Shown here: positions 1-7,676 of the stretch, in pieces
Layout: each line of letters starts with the position of its first letter
Position numbering within the stretch: position 1 is the first letter of the stretch
IMG/VR virus record: IMGVR_UViG_2623620491_000013
Coordinates: 1 to 7,676 of that record
Length of the DNA: 7,676 nucleotides
Strand: one strand, 5' to 3'
From: a virus
Lineage: Duplodnaviria; Heunggongvirae; Uroviricota; Caudoviricetes
The notes under the pieces: model-generated
What the model was told of the DNA's origin: nothing
Seen by the model: the letters and a program-made list of their open reading frames with translations, nothing else
Database searches by the model: none
Made by a program: the position numbers and the translations under genes

Positions 1-261
1 AAGCGTGCGTATTGCCTGAAAACACAACCCGCTACGGGGGAGACTTACCCGAAATCTGATTTATTCAACAAAGCCCGTCAGTGTGTGACCCCTGGCGATT
101 ATGTTCTTTATGAAGGTCGGACATATATCGCCTCGGCAAACAATATTAAAAAGAGAAAACTTTATATTCGTAGCCTGACTACAAAAACATGCATTTCTGA
201 CTGCATGATTAAAGTCTTCCTCGGTCGTGATGGTTTACCTGTAAAGGCGGAGTCATGGTAA
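1..261 (+). CDS. 3' end of an upstream prophage ORF, truncated by the window edge; product unknown
   Basis: Frame 1 is open from position 1 to TAA at 259-261 (86 sense codons, only in-frame ATG near the end), so an ATG-anchored ORF track misses it. Its stop overlaps the next start (TAATG). In the Rac gene order this slot is a kil-type gene, but I cannot confirm that from sequence. Confidence 0.4.
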
Positions 262-431
262 TGACTAAGAAAATAAAATGTGCTTATCACCTTTGCAATA
301 AAGAAATTGAAGAAAGCAAAATCATTACAAGACCACTTCATTTCATGCGTGGAGTTATACCAACGACGGAAATGAAAAAATATTGTAGTGAAATCTGTGC
401 CGAAAAAGACCAGATGGCACACGAACTTTAA
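261..431 (+). CDS. Small Cys4 zinc-ribbon protein, 56 aa (ydaE-like by position and length)
   Basis: ATG at 261 overlaps the upstream stop (TAATG); GGAG at 249-252 with 8-nt spacing; stop TAA at 429-431. Four Cys arranged C-x4-C ... C-x3-C (KCAYHLC ... YCSEIC). Not in the supplied ORF track (below size cut-off); the antisense 86-aa track ORF 162-422 is the less plausible reading. Confidence 0.55.
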   Translation: MTKKIKCAYHLCNKEIEESKIITRPLHFMRGVIPTTEMKKYCSEICAEKDQMAHEL

Positions 432-505
432 TTAACTGACTATCCGAAACTGAATTTATGCCAGCAATGGCAGGGATTCGCTCAACCTTAATTAAGGAGA
501 AAAAC

Positions 506-781
506 ATGATTACCAGTTATGAAGCCACTGTTGTTACTACTGATGACATTGTTCACGAAGTCAGCCTGGAAGGAAAGCGTATTGGCTACGTGATTAAAAC
601 AGAAAATAAAGAAGCCCCTTTCACTGTGGTTGATATCGACGGTCCATCAGGCAACGTTAAAACACTTAACGAAGGCGTCAAAAAAATGTGCCTAGTGCAT
701 ATCGGAAAGAATCTGCCCGCAGAAAAAAAAGCCGAATTTCTGGCAACTCTGATTGCAATGAAATTAAAAGGTGAAATCTGA
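506..781 (+). CDS. RacC-like small prophage protein, 91 aa
   Basis: ATG at 506 preceded by AAGGAG (494-499, 6-nt spacer); internal start of track ORF 458-781. Size and position immediately upstream of recE match racC of Rac-type prophages; assigned by synteny, not sequence recognition. Confidence 0.55.
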   Translation: MITSYEATVVTTDDIVHEVSLEGKRIGYVIKTENKEAPFTVVDIDGPSGNVKTLNEGVKKMCLVHIGKNLPAEKKAEFLATLIAMKLKGEI

Positions 782-787
782 AGAAAT

Positions 788-808
788 AGCCTGCGTATGA
801 CGCAGGCT
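788..808 (+). other. Perfect hairpin (9-bp stem AGCCTGCGT / ACGCAGGCT, 3-nt loop) in the racC-recE spacer, no U-tract
   Basis: Inverted repeat read directly from the sequence. Not followed by a T-run, so not a canonical intrinsic terminator; possibly an RNA processing/stability element or a protein-binding palindrome. Confidence 0.4.
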
Positions 809-880
809 ATGAACAGTGTGTATCCGGCAAGATTATTCACTGAACAAACGAATTTTAATCTGAGTTGAGGTTAAAAAACA

Positions 881-3800
881 ATGAGCACCGATAAACAAGT
901 TTACCCACTGTATTACGAAGCAAAAAATGACAAAGTAAGAAAACGTCTCGGTATTAAAGGCGGTTTTTACTGGGCTGAAGCGAAAAAATTATCCATTGCC
1001 ATCTCCCGTGGTGCTGTTGCGATTGACGATGCTGGCTACGATGAAGATGACTTCAAAAAACCTGTTCGCGTCAATTTGCCCGTTGTTGATGACCTCCCGC
1101 CAGAAGGCGTATTTGATACGGAATTCTGCAACCGTTACGAAAAAGGCGGGGAAGATGGCATCACAATGGTATTTATCGCGCCCTCACCCTCTGCGCAGGG
1201 CAAACCAGCCAGCACTGACAACACCAATGTTAATGGCGAAGACATGACGGAGATTGAGGAGAATATGCTACTCCCGATTTCTGGCCAGGAGCTGCCCATT
1301 CGCTGGCTTGCTCAACACGGCAGCGAAAAACCGGTAACGCACGTTTCACGCGACGAACTCCAGGCATTACACATTGCACGGGCTGAGGAACTACCAGCTG
1401 TTACTGCCCTGGCTGTTTCCCACAAAACCAGCCTGCTCGATCCGCTGGAAATTCGCGATCTCCACAAACTGGTGCGTGATACTGACAGAGTTTTCCCTAA
1501 TCCAGGCAATTCAAGCCTGGGGCTGATGACTGCTTTTTTCGAAGCATACATGGACGCAGACTACACCGATCGCGGTCTGCTGACAAAAGAGTGGATGAAA
1601 GGAAATCGTGTTTCACGCATCACGCGCACGGCTTCCGGCGCTAATGCTGGCGGCGGGAACCTCACCGATCGCGGCGAAGGTTTCGTTCACGATCTGACGT
1701 CACTGGCGCGCGACGTAGCCACTGGCGTACTGGCCCGTTCAATGGACGTGGACATTTATAACCTTCATCCGGCACACGCTAAACGTGTCGAGGAAATTAT
1801 CGCTGAAAATAAACCGCCCTTTTCTGTTTTCCGCGACAAATTCATCACCATGCCTGGCGGGCTGGATTATTCCCGTGCCATCGTGGTTGCGTCCGTAAAA
1901 GAAGCACCAATTGGGATCGAGGTTATCCCCGCACACGTCACTGAATATCTGAACAAAGTACTGACTGAAACTGATCATGCCAACCCTGATCCAGAAATCG
2001 TGGATATTGCCTGCGGTCGTTCCTCTGCCCCGATGCCGCAGCGTGTAACAGAAGAAGAAAAACAGGATGATGAAGAAAAACTGCAACCATCTTGCGCAAT
2101 GGCAGATGAACAGGCAACGGCTGAAACAGTGGAACCGGATGCAACTGAACATCATCAGGACACGCAGCCGCTGGATGCTCAGTCACAGGTAAATTCTGTT
2201 GATGCGAAATATCAGAAACTGCGGGCAGAACTCCATGAAGCCCGGAAAAACATTCCGCCCAAAAATCCTGTCGATGCAGACAAATTACTGGCTGCCTCTC
2301 GCGGAGAATTTGTTGAAGGGATTAGCGACCCGAATGATCCGAAATGGGTTAAGGGGATCCAGACCCGCGACTCTGTGTATCAGAATCAGCCAGAAACGGA
2401 ACAGAACGACCCAAATACGCAACAAAACGAGCCAGAAACGAAACAGCCTGAGCCAGTAGTGCAACAACAGGAAACGGAGAAAGTTTGCACCGCCTGCGGT
2501 AAGGCTGGCGGCGGCAACTGTCCTGACTGTGGCGCGGTGATGGGCGACGCAACGTATCAGAAAACCTTTAATGAAGAAAATCAGAATGAATATCAGGAAA
2601 AAGGTCTGGAGGAAATGGAAGGTGCTGAACATCCGCACAAGGAGAACGCTGGCAGCAATCCGCATTGCGATTGCAGTGATGAAGCTGGTGAAGCGACAGC
2701 ACCTGTAGTAACTGAAATCATGTGGCCGTCATATTTCGAGCCTGGCCGCTATGAAAACCTCCCGAACGAGGTTTATCACTCCGCCAACGGAATAAGCAGC
2801 ACAATGCTGAAGGATGCCCGCATCAGCCTGATGTATTACCACGGACGGCACATTGCCGGAACTATTCTGGGCGAGGAAAGTGATGCATTGCTGCGTGGGC
2901 GGATTATTCACAGCTATGTTCTGGAAACGGATAAATTCGCTGATGAGTATGCCATTCCGGTACCGGTTCCTGAATATGTGGTTACTACTTCTAACGAACT
3001 GATCGCCATCATTAAAAAACACAATGCCAGTCTGCCAGCACTGATGACACCAGAGCAGATGAAAGAGTGGATCGAAAGCTACAACAGCACTCTTATACAG
3101 CCACTGTCGGTAAGTGCCGGGGCCGAAGAAACAGGCATCCTTTACGGTTCGCTTCCGGAGGAATTCCGGCGTATTCCTGAGGGGGAAAAACACACAGCAT
3201 CAGCAATGAAAGCCTGTATTAAAGAATACAACGCAAGCCTCCCTCCTCTGCTGAAAGCCAGTGGAACACGGGAGCAGCTCCTGGAGCAAATTGAAACTGT
3301 AGATCCAGAACTGGCAAAAAAAGAACGTGCTAAATCTTTGCCTTACAACATCAGTGGCACAAAAGAGCAATTAACCGAAATCGCCCGGAAAATTCGCCCG
3401 GAACTGGTGACACTGGAGGACTGGCAAAAACGCCAGCAAGAAGAAAACGCCGGGAAAATGTTTATCAGTCCGGATATGTATGAACAGGCAAAAAATATTC
3501 ACGCAGCACTGCAAAACAATACTGATGCAGCAAGGCTACTCAACCACCCGGATCGCAAATCTGAAATCAGCTATTTCGGGTTTGATGAAGAAACCGGGCT
3601 GGAAATCAGGGTCCGTCCTGATATCGAAATCCGGCTGCCATACGAAAGCATTTGCGCCGACGTGAAGTCAGTCAGCCTCGGTTATGTGCGACAGGAACGA
3701 CTGAAAGATCGCCTGCACCGTGAAATTATTGAGCGTGATTATCACCTCAGCGCAGCAATGTATTGCGATGTGGCAAACCTGGACAAATTTTTCTGGATCT

Positions 3801-4009
3801 TCGTCAACAAAGATGCTGGCTATCACTGGGTGGCCGTCGTGGAAGCCTCGCAGGAACTCCTGGAACTTGGTCGACAGGAATATCGCCGGACGCTACGACA
3901 GATAAACGAAGCTCTGGAGACAAACAACTGGCCAGCACCGATTACCGAAAGTTATACCGACGAATTAAACGACTTTGATCTTCGTCGTTTTGAAGCACTG
4001 AGCATCTGA
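881..4009 (+). CDS. recE: Exodeoxyribonuclease VIII (RecE), 1042 aa, with C-terminal PD-(D/E)xK nuclease domain
   Basis: ATG at 881 with GAGG at 867-870. Protein contains segments I recognise as RecE-like ([43 protein letters not shown]...). C-terminal nuclease motif P913-D914 ... D927-V-K929 ([19 protein letters not shown]). Followed by a coupled annealing-protein gene and ralR, the Rac recET-lar arrangement. Confidence 0.82.
2486..2533 (+). other. Cys4 zinc-ribbon/knuckle motif inside RecE (C536-x2-C539-x7-C547-x2-C550)
   Basis: [16 protein letters not shown] read from the recE translation; sits just downstream of a Q/E/P/T-rich low-complexity linker. Confidence 0.5.
3005..3410 (+). repeat. 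Three imperfect tandem coding repeats (about 35-40 aa each) within the RecE C-terminal region
   Basis: Protein copies [23 protein letters not shown] / [27 protein letters not shown] / [21 protein letters not shown]. Nucleotide copies attaaaaaacacaatgccagtctgccagcactg (about 3011) and attaaagaatacaacgcaagcctccctcctctg (about 3218). Confidence 0.55.
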
Positions 4010-4020
4010 GGAAGGACACA

Positions 4021-5073
4021 ATGAACGAATTAACTCAACAAGAAAATATTAACTCTAATGTTGCGGTTTTCAGCCCTCAGTCCCTGGCTGCAATTCAGAC
4101 ATTTTCCCAGGTAATGGCTTCCGGCATGGCTACTGTACCGGAACACCTCCGGGGAAATCCATCAGACTGCATGGCCATCACCATGCAGGCGATGCAGTGG
4201 CAAATGAACCCTTACGCAGTAGCTCAGAAAACTTTCGTTGTGAATGGTGTGCTCGGATATGAAGCGCAACTGGTTAATGCCGTAATCAGTACTCGTGGGC
4301 CGCTAACCGGGCGTATTGAATATGACTGGTTCGGGCCGTGGGAAAAAATTATCGGGAAATTTGAAATTAGGAAGAACGACAAGGGGAAAGAATATCGTGT
4401 ACCTGGCTGGAAGCTGGCCGATGAAAACGGGATCGGAGTTCGCGTCCAGGCAACACTACGCGGAGAGAGCAAGCCACGCGTACTGGAGTTACTTCTGGCG
4501 CAGGCCAGAACACGTAACTCAACGTTATGGGCCGATGATCCTCGCCAGCAGCTTGCCTATCTGGCACTGAAACGCTGGGCGCGCCTTTATTGCCCTGAAG
4601 TGATTCTTGGAGTGTACACCCGGGACGAACTGGACGAACCACAGGAAAAAATCATTAATCCGGTTCAGGAACATAAAAATACATCCGCCTGCCGTGCGGA
4701 ACGTGAAACAACAATTATTGAGCAGGATGCCGGGGAAAACTGGATCAGTGCTTTCCGTGAACGTATTGAGCAGGCACAAAGCACCGGAGAAACAACATCA
4801 CTTCGCCAGGAAGTGGAAGATCATAAAAATACACTTGGCGCTCTCTACACAGAACTTAAAGGAAAAGTGGTTCAGCGTCATCACCGTCTCAATGCTATTG
4901 CCCGTATTGAGACGATGATAAATGACCTGCCTTCATCAGGTGATCCAGAAGCAGAACAAAAATTTATTGCTCTGGAAAATACGCTGAATGCTGCACGACC
5001 ACATCTGGGAGAATTATATGAGGCGTATAAAACGACACTGACAGATATGAAACCAGAATATATCGGCTCCTGA
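4021..5073 (+). CDS. RecT/Red-beta-family single-strand annealing protein, 350 aa, with a long C-terminal helical extension
   Basis: ATG at 4021; RBS GAGGAAGG (4008-4015) overlaps the recE stop (TGA 4007-4009), indicating translational coupling. N-terminal half has a Bet/RecT-like pattern (GNPSDCMAI...QWQMNPYAVAQK...GVLGYEAQ; LWADDPRQQLAYLALKRWARLY). I did not recognise the canonical K-12 RecT sequence, so the family assignment is by motif and position. Confidence 0.7.
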   Translation: MNELTQQENINSNVAVFSPQSLAAIQTFSQVMASGMATVPEHLRGNPSDCMAITMQAMQWQMNPYAVAQKTFVVNGVLGYEAQLVNAVISTRGPLTGRIEYDWFGPWEKIIGKFEIRKNDKGKEYRVPGWKLADENGIGVRVQATLRGESKPRVLELLLAQARTRNSTLWADDPRQQLAYLALKRWARLYCPEVILGVYTRDELDEPQEKIINPVQEHKNTSACRAERETTIIEQDAGENWISAFRERIEQAQSTGETTSLRQEVEDHKNTLGALYTELKGKVVQRHHRLNAIARIETMINDLPSSGDPEAEQKFIALENTLNAARPHLGELYEAYKTTLTDMKPEYIGS

Positions 5074-5080
5074 TATTTAC

Positions 5081-5106
5081 TATGGCGGTGTAGCCTCACC
5101 GCCATA
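5081..5106 (+). other. Perfect 10-bp stem hairpin (TATGGCGGTG / CACCGCCATA, 6-nt loop) between the annealing-protein stop and ralR
   Basis: Read directly from the sequence. Followed after 8 nt by a T-rich stretch (ACAAAACTTTATTTTA), so a weak terminator or leader structure for ralR. Overlaps the direct-repeat copy at 5074-5090. Confidence 0.45.
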
Positions 5107-5136
5107 ACAAAACTTTATTTTATGAGAGAAAAGACA

Positions 5137-5331
5137 ATGCGGTATGAAAAAGTCAAACCATGTCCGTTTTGTGGTTGTCCATCAGTAACGGTGAAAGCCA
5201 TTTCAGGATATTACCGCGCAAAGTGTAACGGATGCGAATCCCGAACCGGCTATAGTGGAAGTGAAAAAGAAGCACTCGAAAGATGGAATAAACGAACTAC
5301 TGGAAATAATAATGGAGGTGTTCATGTATAA
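5137..5331 (+). CDS. ralR: RalR (Lar): restriction-alleviation protein, reported to be the DNase toxin of a type I toxin-antitoxin pair in Rac
   Basis: 64 aa from ATG 5137 (purine-rich RBS GAGAGAAAAG at 5124-5133). Sequence MRYEKVKPCPFCGCPSVTVKAISGYYRAKCNGCESRTGYSGSEKEALERWNKR is recognised as Lar/RalR, with a C-x2-C ... C-x2-C zinc ribbon. The track ORF 5122-5331 is a 5-codon upstream extension. Confidence 0.85.
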   Translation: MRYEKVKPCPFCGCPSVTVKAISGYYRAKCNGCESRTGYSGSEKEALERWNKRTTGNNNGGVHV

Positions 5332-5512
5332 AATTACTACCACTATTGAAAAGGAAGGTGGCACTCCTACTAACTGGACAAGATATTCAAAATCTAAATT
5401 AACGAAATCAGAATGCGAAAAAATGCTCTCAGGGAAAAAAGAAGCAGGCGTTTCCAGAGAGCAGAAAGTAAAGCTGATAAATTTTAATTGCGAGAAACTT
5501 CTGTCCTCGTGA
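5324..5512 (+). CDS. YdaC-like small protein, 62 aa, overlapping the ralR 3' end
   Basis: ATG at 5324 with GGAGG at 5314-5318 (5-nt spacer); out-of-frame 8-nt overlap with the ralR stop (ATGTATAA). The track ORF 5255-5512 gives a longer N-terminus that lies inside ralR. Assigned by position in the Rac-type order. Confidence 0.5.
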   Translation: MYKITTTIEKEGGTPTNWTRYSKSKLTKSECEKMLSGKKEAGVSREQKVKLINFNCEKLLSS

Positions 5513-5567
5513 GTTGCATTATATACAAATTAGAACTTCATAGCTGATTATTAAAAATCAACCACAT

Positions 5568-5596
5568 CCGCCAGTATTCTGTATATTTACTGGCGG
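5568..5596 (+). other. Hairpin (9-bp stem CCGCCAGTA / TACTGGCGG, 11-nt loop) in the ydaC-xis spacer
   Basis: Read directly from the sequence; carries the second copy of the direct repeat ATATTTACT..GGCGGT also found at 5074-5090. Confidence 0.45.
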
Positions 5597-5618
5597 TCAT
5601 ATCGTAAGAGGTATGGCA

Positions 5619-5900
5619 ATGAATCTTGTGACACTCAAAACGTGGGGAAAACTCAGATATCCGGATAACCCACCATCAATATCAACGCTGAGACGATGGG
5701 CAAGGAATGGAAACATTTATCCTGCACCTGAACTACACGGGAGGAGTTACAGGGTGGTTCCGGAGGCTTTCTATATCAACCCAAATAAGGTTGATACCGA
5801 TATAACACACCATCAGCCTAATGGGCGACAAGGGAGAGACAGTCCGTTACTGGAGAAGTTAAAACATGCAGCGGAAAAAATACGATCCCAATTTGCCTAA
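5619..5900 (+). CDS. xis: Excisionase (Xis-like DNA-binding protein)
   Basis: Preferred start ATG 5619 (AAGAGG at 5606-5611, 7-nt spacer); the track start 5613 sits too close to the RBS. Overlaps the int start by 35 nt, as in lambda xis-int. Basic N-terminus with TLRRWARNG resembles the lambda Xis RRW region. Confidence 0.7.
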   Translation: MNLVTLKTWGKLRYPDNPPSISTLRRWARNGNIYPAPELHGRSYRVVPEAFYINPNKVDTDITHHQPNGRQGRDSPLLEKLKHAAEKIRSQFA

Positions 5901-6942
5901 AAACTTAACATATCGAAGGAGGGACAAAGCATATTACTGGCGCAACCCTCTGACGAAAGAAGAATTTACACTAGGTAAAATTTCAAGAAGAGATGCAGTA
6001 GCGCAGGCAATTGAAGCAAATCATTATATATACAAAAACTACTCTCCTGCTGCCTTAATTGAAAAGCTTAAAGGGTTCGACTCATTTACTATGGCAGACT
6101 GGATTGAACGTTACAAAACGATTCTTATAAGGAGAAAAGTGTCCAGAAATACTTATAAAATTCGGGTAAATCAACTGGAGACAATAAAAGAAAAATTGGG
6201 AGAGATTTTACTGACAGAAATAACCACTCGCCATATTGCCGAGTTTCTTGATTTGTGGATTGAAGGAGGGAAAAACACAATGGCAGGATCAATGCGTTCT
6301 GTGTTGTCTGATATGTTTCGTGAGGCCATTGTTGAAGGACGTATATCTCAAAATCCAGTAACGCCAACAAGAGCACCGAAAATAGTAGTTACAAGAGAAC
6401 GACTGAAACTAAAGACATACAACTGCATCAGGGAGGCAGCAGATCAACTTCCGGCATGGTTCCCATTAGCTATGGATTTAGCCCTTGTAACAGGACAACG
6501 TCGCGAAGACATAACGAATATGCGGTTTAGTGATATTTATGATGATCGTCTCCACATCAGGCAAATTAAGACAGGAATGATGATTGCTATCCCCCTGTCA
6601 CTCAGCCTTCCTGTCGCTGGTCTACGGCTTGGTACAGTAGTTGAACAGTGCCGCCTGGTAAGCCGGGGAGATTATCTAATCAGTGCCGGGATTAGAAAAA
6701 ACAGCCCTGACGGCAGCATTCACCCGGATGGCCTGACAAAAAAATTTGTCGCAGCCAGAAAATTAACAGGTATCCAGTTCAGTGAAAACCCACCAACTTT
6801 TCACGAGATCAGAAGTCTGGCTGGACGATTGTACAAAGAAACATGTGGAGAAGAATTTGCTCAGCGTCTACTTGGCCACACATCGGAGAAGACAACAAAA
6901 ATGTACCTTGATGAGAGAGAAAAAACGTACTTACTGCTCTGA
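5866..6942 (+). CDS. int: Lambda-family tyrosine integrase with N-terminal arm-binding domain
   Basis: 358 aa, colinear with lambda Int. N-terminus [22 protein letters not shown] matches lambda NLYIRNNGYYCYRDPRTGKEF; catalytic-region motifs [35 protein letters not shown] and [13 protein letters not shown] include the catalytic Tyr. GGAG at 5852-5855. Confidence 0.93.
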
Positions 6943-7008
6943 TTTTAACGTAAATGGATTGTTAAATGTATTTTGGTTGTGATATAACCAAAAAAGACTG
7001 GAATACAG

Positions 7009-7039
7009 AAATTCGAGTAAATTTCGGGGAATTTCGGGG
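7009..7039 (+). repeat. Tandem direct repeats: exact 10-bp AATTTCGGGG twice (7020-7039) plus a degenerate adjacent copy (7009-7019); candidate arm-type Int binding sites
   Basis: Repeats read directly. Three tandem short direct repeats between the int stop and the putative core mirror the P'1-P'3 arrangement of lambda attP. Function is inferred. Confidence 0.45.
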
Positions 7040-7048
7040 AGACGTTTG

Positions 7049-7061
7049 CAACTGATTGATT
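7049..7061 (-). promoter_or_regulatory. IHF consensus site (AATCAATCAGTTG = WATCAANNNNTTR) on the - strand
   Basis: Exact match to the IHF consensus, lying between the tandem repeats and the sdsR terminator palindrome, analogous to the H' site of lambda attP. Confidence 0.4.
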
Positions 7062-7073
7062 TTAAATACAATT

Positions 7074-7176
7074 AAAAAAAGACCGAATACGATTCCTGTA
7101 TTCGGTCCAGGGAAATGGCTCTTGGGAGAGAGCCGTGCGCTAAAAGTTGGCATTAATGCAGGCTTAGTTGCCTTGC
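7074..7176 (-). ncRNA. sdsR: SdsR (RyeB) small RNA
   Basis: The - strand reads GCAAGGCAACTAAGCCTGCATTAATGCCAACTTTTAGCGCACGGCTCTCTCCCAAGAGCCATTTCCCTGGACCGAATACAGGAATCGTATTCGGTC followed by T7, which I recognise as SdsR with its intrinsic terminator. A sigma-S type -10 lies immediately upstream. Confidence 0.8.
7081..7107. other. Candidate att core: perfect inverted repeat GACCGAATAC / GTATTCGGTC around a 7-bp spacer (GATTCCT), coincident with the sdsR terminator stem-loop
   Basis: Two inverted 10-bp half-sites around a 7-bp spacer resemble a C-overlap-C' core. Distances to the IHF site (about 35 bp) and tandem repeats (about 55-75 bp) approximate the lambda P' arm geometry. Inference only; the junction could lie further left (6943-7045). 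Confidence 0.35.
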
Positions 7177-7215
7177 CCTTTAAGAATAGATGACGACGCC
7201 AGGTTTTCCAGTTTG
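7177..7215 (-). promoter_or_regulatory. sdsR promoter with sigma-S type extended -10 (TCTATTCTTAA)
   Basis: On the - strand TCTATTCTTAAAGG immediately precedes the SdsR 5' end (plus coordinates 7177-7190); this is a near match to the sigma-S -10 consensus TCTATACTTAA including the -13 C. SdsR is a known RpoS-dependent sRNA. Confidence 0.55.
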
Positions 7216-7263
7216 CGTGCAAAATGGTCAATAAAAAGCGTGGTGGTCATCAGCTGAAATGTT

Positions 7264-7305
7264 AAAAACCGCCCGTTCTGGTGAAAGAACTGAGGCGGTT
7301 TTTTT
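7264..7305. terminator. Bidirectional intrinsic terminator between ryeA (+) and yebY (-)
   Basis: A5 (7264-7268), imperfect stem CCGCC-C-GTTCT ... AGAAC-TGA-GGCGG (7269-7298), T7 (7299-7305). U-tract on both strands: 7 U for the + strand transcript, 5 U for the - strand. Confidence 0.7.
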
Positions 7306-7334
7306 ATTGGAAATCAAAAGGCTATTTTAGGTAA

Positions 7335-7676
7335 TTAACAGAGTTTTTCAGCTCGTTCTATAAACGGTGCCAGACTCATTTTTTCGCCGGGATTGTTAGG
7401 ATCATCAATCTGAATCACCGAAATGGGTTGGGCATTGGTCTTCCCACTGGCAACTTCCTTTTGTGCGATATCGTTTAAAGGATACTGCACGAGGGTACTC
7501 GGATTAATAACATACAAAGCATTACCCGGTCGGCAAGTCAGCATCACCTCTTCGCGATTAAACGCCCATTTGTCTTTACCCACTTCAAAACGACTGACGG
7601 TAATCACCTGCGGTGCAGCCAGCGCCGCTGCAGAACTGGTGAGTAACAGAAACGCCAGAATACTTTTTTTCATCAT
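7335..7676 (-). CDS. yebY: YebY (DUF2511-type secreted protein) with Sec signal peptide
   Basis: 113 aa ORF; N-terminus [23 protein letters not shown] is a typical signal peptide with an AxA cleavage site. Length and position next to sdsR match yebY of E. coli. The start codon is at the window edge, so start choice (7676 or 7673) and RBS cannot be checked. Confidence 0.7.

Follow-up and report, generated by a model that had tools for sequence, protein, structure and literature searches.

A Rac-Like Lambdoid Prophage Junction within the sdsR Terminator of Escherichia coli and Its Predicted Consequences for the Antisense RNA RyeA

Genes and Features of the Locus

The stretch of DNA considered here (the window, 7,676 nucleotides of IMG/VR record IMGVR_UViG_2623620491_000013) contains one end of a prophage together with its host flank. 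Its gene order, read from the open reading frames (ORFs) and from the annotation of near-identical genomes, includes recE (881-4009) and recT (4021-5073), followed by the ORF of ralR on the plus strand (5122-5331) and, on the minus strand, by the RalA antitoxin sRNA (5330-5508), a full-length match to its Rfam model at 219.7 bits; at 5122-5508 these two make up a RalR/RalA type I toxin-antitoxin pair. The excisionase gene xis (5613-5900, plus strand) is identified by its ORF, by a Pfam Exc domain (PF07825, 52.1 bits) and by the excisionase annotation in the complete lysogen NZ_CP087564. It is followed by int (5866-6942, plus strand), which codes for a lambda-type tyrosine integrase of 358 amino acids with an N-terminal arm-binding domain (Arm-DNA-bind_1, PF09003, 28.1 bits against a cutoff of 22), a central core-binding domain (Phage_int_M, 41.3 bits) and a catalytic domain (Phage_integrase, PF00589, 61.6 bits against a cutoff of 27.1). 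The host flank carries yebY (7335-7676, minus strand; ORF and annotation), and two overlapping sRNA genes, sdsR (also called ryeB) and ryeA (also called sraC), lie between int and yebY on opposite strands. SdsR, a conserved RpoS-dependent regulator whose targets include tolC, mutS, ompD and yhcB, is antagonised by RyeA, which is encoded in cis.

The stretch from 5613 to 7104 is the int-proximal end of a Rac-like lambdoid prophage of approximately 41.6 kb lodged within the sdsR terminator, and xis, int, three arm-type repeats, an IHF site and the core all lie within this stretch. Judged from its sequence features, the attachment site is of the kind used by lambda-type (heterobivalent) tyrosine integrases. 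The likeness to the K-12 Rac prophage resides in kilR, racC, recE, recT, ralR, the RalA sRNA, xis and int, all of which are common to Rac and to the window or its relative, whereas the sdsR-terminator prophage is intact and has another late region. With 1042 aa for recE and 350 aa for recT, these two ORFs of the window appear longer than the Rac versions of K-12, and the attachment site of Rac is presumably different, the sdsR-terminator phage having another integrase specificity.

The Phage-Host Boundary and the Crossover Segment

Alignment of the window with K-12 gives 100% identity from position 7089 rightward (over 7089-7340), partial similarity at 7068-7088 with two mismatches, at 7079 (A in the window vs. 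G in K-12) and 7088 (T vs. C), and no homology to K-12 left of approximately 7068. The stretch from 6943 to 7088 is the phage-derived P' arm of the int-proximal junction, the equivalent of lambda attL, as judged from the lack of K-12 homology left of approximately 7068, from the phage bases at 7079 and 7088 and from its 96.8% identity to the attP region of phage genome PP818812 (compared over window positions 5866-7104). PP818812 unites both arms and has an intact attP, ...TTTGCAACTAATTGATTTTAAATACAATTAAAAAAAGACCGAATACGATTCCTGT|TTTCGTCAACAAAC.... This genome is titled Actinobacillus phage vB_Apl-pPE4 (L003/L004) and also has recE, recT and an attP core that copies the enterobacterial sdsR terminator; Actinobacillus looks doubtful as its host.

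The closest match to the window as a whole is 98.9% identical over positions 76-7676. The far junction was read in NZ_CP087564 (L002), which is 99.9% identical to window positions 6700-7676 and in which pphA and yebY are parted by a 41.6 kb prophage. On the pphA side of this genome, the K-12 sequence runs to ...GACCGAACACGATTCCTGT, retaining the host G and C, and phage sequence TTTCGTCAACAAAC follows. The yebY-side junction has phage A7079 and T7088, and the pphA-side junction has host G/C and then phage TTTCGTC. The core is present at both ends of the prophage (6788 and 48423 of L002), and many IMG/VR prophage contigs likewise show a K-12-type left flank fused to the right arm of the phage.

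Comparison of attB, attP and both junctions delimits an att homology block of 32 bp (7073-7104), and the BLAST pieces of interrupted genomes overlap at the corresponding K-12 positions (L001 1604-1635). The phage attP and the E. coli attB are identical at 29 of these 32 positions, and the three differences confine the crossover to 11 bp, namely the segment ACGATTCCTGT at 7089-7099, which corresponds to the loop and 3' flank of the sdsR terminator. Going by the junction bases, phage-derived sequence extends to at least 7088 and strand exchange falls within 7089-7099. The earlier note on this DNA had started from the supposition of a core at the 3' end of sdsR, which agrees with a crossover inside the sdsR terminator; its assignment, on that supposition, of everything left of about 7080 to the phage is right as to origin and a few bases short as to the boundary, which the K-12 alignment and the PP818812 attP move rightward to 7088/7089-7099.

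The P' arm also holds a degenerate second copy of the core, at 6990-7008 as compared with 7074-7092 (AAAAAAGACTGGAATACAG vs. AAAAAAAGACCGAATACG). In one IMG/VR prophage (L064), an 85-bp deletion between both core copies has removed the arm-type repeats and the IHF site, and this prophage is probably no longer able to excise.

Regeneration of sdsR

Despite the insertion, sdsR is complete in the window (7074-7177, minus strand). The Rfam model RF00111 matches 7074-7173 with 118.1 bits against a gathering score of 38, and the K-12 annotation (L001 1605-1708, offset 5469; NC_000913 1923104-1923207) maps onto the whole gene. Its intrinsic terminator, located by a terminator scan and by comparison with K-12, consists of a hairpin and a run of seven U (7080-7108, minus strand). 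From the 3' end of sdsR (7074-7077) to the crossover (7089-7099) the distance is 13-26 nt. The last 15-26 nt of the gene are phage-derived, and the gene is rebuilt intact with two phage-derived substitutions.

In the mechanism that we propose, the lambda-type Int recombined the attP core with the host sdsR terminator, the exchange taking place in ACGATTCCTGT; the attP core is itself a copy of an sdsR-like terminator. Because the phage carries T at 7088 and the E. coli attB carries C, a G-U pair of the SdsR terminator becomes an A-U pair upon lysogeny and the U tract lengthens, reading UUUUUUU in the lysogen and UCUUUUU in K-12. The T at 7088 is found in nearly all phage attP cores recovered, with C at this position in a few left arms, and is also the Rfam consensus base. 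A more stable terminator of phage origin was considered and rejected: the predicted free energy of the hairpin is -15.8 kcal/mol in both versions, and the U tract is the sole difference.

Displacement of the ryeA Promoter

The antisense gene fares differently, as the locus is bidirectional and the regeneration of sdsR necessarily decapitates ryeA. The host-derived body and 3' end of ryeA occupy 7089-7307 on the plus strand, as indicated by K-12 identity from 7089, by a match to Rfam model RF00101 (179.1 bits at 7070-7214) and by the position of ryeA in K-12 (L001 1567-1838). An inverted-repeat search places its terminator, AAAAACCGCC/GGCGGTTTTT followed by a T run, at 7264-7307 (plus strand), the same as in K-12, where RyeA 3' ends were mapped at +261 to +270 (PMC6610125). 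K-12 ryeA is annotated as a gene of 272 nt (NC_000913 1923066-1923337), and its +1, determined by primer extension and RACE, is 1923066, the transcription being sigma-70 dependent (PMC6610125).

This start lies 38 nt beyond the 3' end of sdsR and corresponds to window position 7036, inside the stretch that the phage has replaced. The alignment with K-12 indicates that the window is without the native ryeA promoter, the +1 (L001 1567) and the first 53-64 nt of RyeA. NZ_CP087564 retains all of these unbroken on the pphA side of the prophage, at a distance of 41.6 kb, where they read into the phage, while the body and terminator of ryeA remain beside yebY. Two further suppositions of the earlier note, that phage DNA precedes the body of ryeA and that the native promoter has moved to the far end of the prophage, are thus confirmed, the first by the P' arm sequence and by the position of the K-12 start in the replaced stretch and the second by the K-12-type promoter found on the pphA side of NZ_CP087564.

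Lambda-Like Layout of the P' Arm

The P' arm contains three tandem 10-bp arm-type repeats, AATTCGAGTA / AATTTCGGGG / AATTTCGGGG, at 7010-7039 on the plus strand. They are kept across about 70 junctions whose integrases are 49-100% identical to the window Int, are the most conserved feature of all sister arms, and are presumed from their sequence to be the binding sites for the arm domain of Int. Between the repeats and the core lies an IHF consensus, AATCAATCAGTTG, at 7049-7061 on the minus strand (an H'-like site), and no other perfect WATCAANNNNTTR occurs in the 7.7 kb window (0.41 expected). Its TGATT element stands at a constant 19 nt from the core amid differing surroundings in at least three distinct arm types with Int at least 68% identical, as compared by eye.

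In lambda, the order of the P' arm is C'-H'-P'1-P'2-P'3-int. The window has the core, the IHF site, three tandem arm-type repeats and int in the same order as lambda attL, with a heterobivalent Int that bears an arm-binding domain and with Xis upstream. On the other hand, the arm repeat (AATTTCGGGG) and the core are unrelated to those of lambda, and the sdsR phage targets an sRNA terminator whereas lambda targets the gal-bio spacer.

Promoter-Like Hexamers on the IHF Site

The same part of the arm displays, at 7045-7072 on the plus strand, the promoter-like hexamers TTTGCA (7045-7050) and TACAAT (7067-7072) with a 16-nt spacer and a predicted start at ~7079-7080. The earlier note had read them as a sigma-70 promoter overlapping an IHF site. 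The sequence and a consensus scan recover hexamers and spacer exactly at these positions, and the overlap is equally real: the candidate -35 shares bases with the TTR end of the perfect IHF consensus and the candidate -10 lies in its A/T-rich flank.

If the arm did hold a functional sigma-70 promoter, it would produce a shortened RyeA of ~228 nt, starting at ~7079 and complementary to almost all of SdsR, and control by the host promoter would be replaced by phage, possibly IHF-modulated, control. The match to the sigma-70 consensus is 9/12 with an acceptable spacer, and the pair is the sole plus-strand match in a consensus scan of 6700-7676, which returned two sites as compared with 1.3 +/- 1.0 in shuffles. 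Its score of 9.9 in a simple, self-made position-weight matrix (PWM) is the second highest in the entire 7.7 kb window and exceeds the 6.2 of the K-12 ryeA promoter, a genuine promoter of the extended -10 type. Moreover, the subfamily to which the window belongs preserves both hexamers in most of its arms, as does the attP of the free phage, and in a related subfamily a perfect TATAAT occurs at a distance of a few bases.

These points are offset by the base composition of the arm (71% A+T), as 515 of 2000 (26%) dinucleotide-preserving shuffles of 6943-7080 score at least as high as observed. The hexamers are also as variable as the rest of the arm or more so: in a comparison of 12 distinct arms from the same subfamily as the window, 3/12 hexamer positions vary and 10/69 of those outside, and two arms (L040 and L079) read TGCAAT and so have lost the key A at position 2 of the -10. 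In 77 distinct P' arms that all adjoin the same core and whose integrases are 49-100% identical to the window Int, the highest promoter-like score per arm lies between 2 and 10 and falls below 6 in about half. Furthermore, the -35 and spacer coincide with the IHF consensus, such that bound IHF would probably occlude RNA polymerase, and lowered ryeA expression is reported for the Salmonella precedent discussed below (PMC7380047).

On balance, a functional promoter in the arm seems unlikely to us. Given the shuffle result, the variability of the hexamers and the low scores in about half of the sister arms, there is no sign in these sequences of selection for a RyeA promoter. The note's plausible sigma-70 promoter is not supported as a working one, since the match does not exceed chance for the composition, is not selectively conserved, is missing in many sister arms and coincides with the IHF site. 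Most simply, the hexamer match would be a by-product of a lambda H'-type IHF site; it may fire weakly, and bound IHF is expected to occlude it.

Predicted Expression of RyeA, SdsR and pphA in Lysogens

The lysogen would not make the full-length 272-nt K-12-type RyeA, because the native promoter has been removed. Any anti-SdsR transcript would come either from the phage arm, as a weak and probably IHF-occluded RNA of ~228 nt starting at ~7079-7080, or from read-through of int. As the native ryeA promoter is gone, convergent transcription into the sdsR promoter would fall and SdsR would be expected to rise, appearing earlier or at a higher level. In K-12, mutation of the ryeA -10 increases read-through from the sdsR promoter about 4-fold via loss of transcriptional interference (PMC6610125). 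The shift of the RyeA:SdsR ratio predicted for lysogens agrees with these promoter-mutant data and with the precedent of phage PhiW104 in Salmonella.

A further consequence concerns pphA, whose transcription is reported to depend mainly on read-through from the sdsR promoter (PMC6610125). In NZ_CP087564, pphA (L002 5990-6646) is parted from the sdsR promoter (sdsR side at 48423) by the 41.6 kb prophage; pphA would thus be uncoupled from this promoter in the lysogen, and sdsR read-through would run antisense into int.

We consider it probable that the account as a whole is correct, that is, a lambdoid prophage junction in the sdsR terminator, hexamers that belong to an IHF site, a displaced ryeA promoter and, by inference, a decrease of RyeA with an increase of SdsR. 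A somewhat different source of anti-SdsR RNA, compatible with the other explanations, would be mainly the read-through of int or xis-int, in which case pairing with SdsR and cleavage by RNase III could act on the int mRNA in the manner of lambda sib. Scanning of 6700-7263 yielded no plus-strand terminator-like site, so that the int stop (6942) is followed by no terminator until that of ryeA (7264-7307), and the arm RNA has no hairpin with a U run and an unremarkable fold (z = -0.61). Int and ryeA are co-oriented, and for want of a terminator after int a prophage-state int transcript would carry a full anti-SdsR 3' UTR. Lambdoid int promoters such as lambda pI and pL are normally nearly silent in stable lysogens, which speaks against int read-through as the main source. 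RNase III is reported to process the RyeA-SdsR duplex (PMC3333887). Taking both sides together, we view predominant read-through as improbable, slightly more so than a functional arm promoter.

Carried one step further, all rightward transcripts of the arm, be they from an IHF-gated arm promoter or from xis-int read-through, would contain the complete anti-SdsR sequence and end at the ryeA terminator, SdsR could come under phage and IHF control, and SdsR together with RNase III could act as a host-supplied, stationary-phase-specific, sib-like retroregulator of int. What recalls lambda is that int has one downstream partner in the phage and another in the prophage; a sib-like role for SdsR is hypothetical. 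We regard this scheme as a long shot.

Known Systems of the Same Kind

The closest known case comes from Salmonella. As summarised in PMC7380047, Balbontin, Figueroa-Bossi, Casadesus and Bossi (J Bacteriol 2008) described an insertion hot spot in the last 23 bp of ryeB, which lie inside ryeA and also serve phage PhiW104 as its attachment site; PMC3333887 notes the insertion finding at Salmonella ryeB too. According to two summaries of that work, PhiW104 lysogeny alters the 5' portion of ryeA, lowers ryeA and raises ryeB (PMC7380047; PMC10969437). RyeB is, besides, a recognised island target in genome-mining work (PMC3603311; PMC10111431).

The E. coli prophage is like PhiW104 in that it is inserted in the last ~23 bp of ryeB/sdsR, internal to ryeA, and in that phage DNA takes the place of the 5' portion of ryeA while ryeB is regenerated; the change of the ryeA/ryeB balance that is reported for Salmonella is predicted for the E. 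coli prophage. It differs by its host, E. coli, and by its Rac-like early region (recET, ralR/RalA) and contractile-tail late region. The phenomenon is therefore already published for Salmonella, and the sdsR-terminator prophage is an E. coli case of the same kind. In the literature searched, no ryeA/sdsR expression study of E. coli lysogens at the sdsR site was found.

More broadly, integration at the 3' end of tRNA and tmRNA genes, as by P4, P22 and HP1, also has the phage bring a replacement 3' end: the attP core repeats the terminal stem-loop of the small structured RNA gene, and the target is left intact. The sdsR/ryeA target differs from these in being bidirectional, so that sdsR is rebuilt and ryeA is decapitated.

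Distribution of the Insertion and Variability of the ryeA 5' End

Among 5426 complete E. coli genomes, 5189 have an uninterrupted K-12-type locus and 237 an interrupted one. An integrase gene of the window type adjoins yebY in 228 of the 5426 (about 4%), with carriers that include O55:H7, O111:H2, O121 and O45:H2 strains. About 9 of the 237 interrupted loci are without a window-type integrase beside yebY, and other elements also use or disrupt the sdsR/ryeA site in E. coli.

A search of the phage collection with a 40-nt core query gave two relevant records, an exact-pattern scan of IMG/VR gave many more, and a protein search of genome contigs with Int gave two near-identical loci, one from Shigella and one from E. 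coli. The sdsR-terminator core is shared by a clade of lambda-type integrases 49-100% identical to the window Int, with at least 77 distinct P' arms (IMG/VR, L008-L126). Across this clade the core and the arm-type repeats are conserved, and the ~40 nt between them are hypervariable.

Frohlich et al. noted that sraC promoters differ between species in position and sequence while sdsR is conserved (PMC3333887). This variation of the sraC/ryeA promoter region could in principle suggest that the left flank of the window is natural host variation of the pphA-sdsR spacer, with RyeA made from a strain-specific native promoter, a reading to which we give practically no credence, as an integrase and an excisionase lie directly upstream, the same arm joins a different right arm in the free phage genome PP818812, pphA and a K-12-type spacer lie at a distance of 41.6 kb in NZ_CP087564 and the core is duplicated at both prophage ends. 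Host polymorphism was accordingly rejected, the far junction of NZ_CP087564 and the attP of PP818812 ruling it out, and no pphA-sdsR spacer matching 6943-7088 was present in the uninterrupted E. coli loci examined. Repeated phage insertion and decay at the core would instead account for the variability of the ryeA/sraC 5' end and promoter among enterobacteria, and an integrase clade that targets the sdsR terminator readily explains why this variability stands beside a conserved sdsR.

Significance

The prophage junction in the sdsR terminator means that about 4% of complete E. coli genomes are without the native RyeA promoter beside sdsR, with pphA no longer coupled to the sdsR promoter. Should the sib-like scheme be true, the capacity of the prophage to excise would be tied to the general stress response via SdsR retroregulation of int. 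If the Salmonella result holds in E. coli, a shifted SdsR/RyeA balance in lysogens would amount to a quiet lysogenic conversion that acts on the control of stress, porins and efflux, and mutagenesis.
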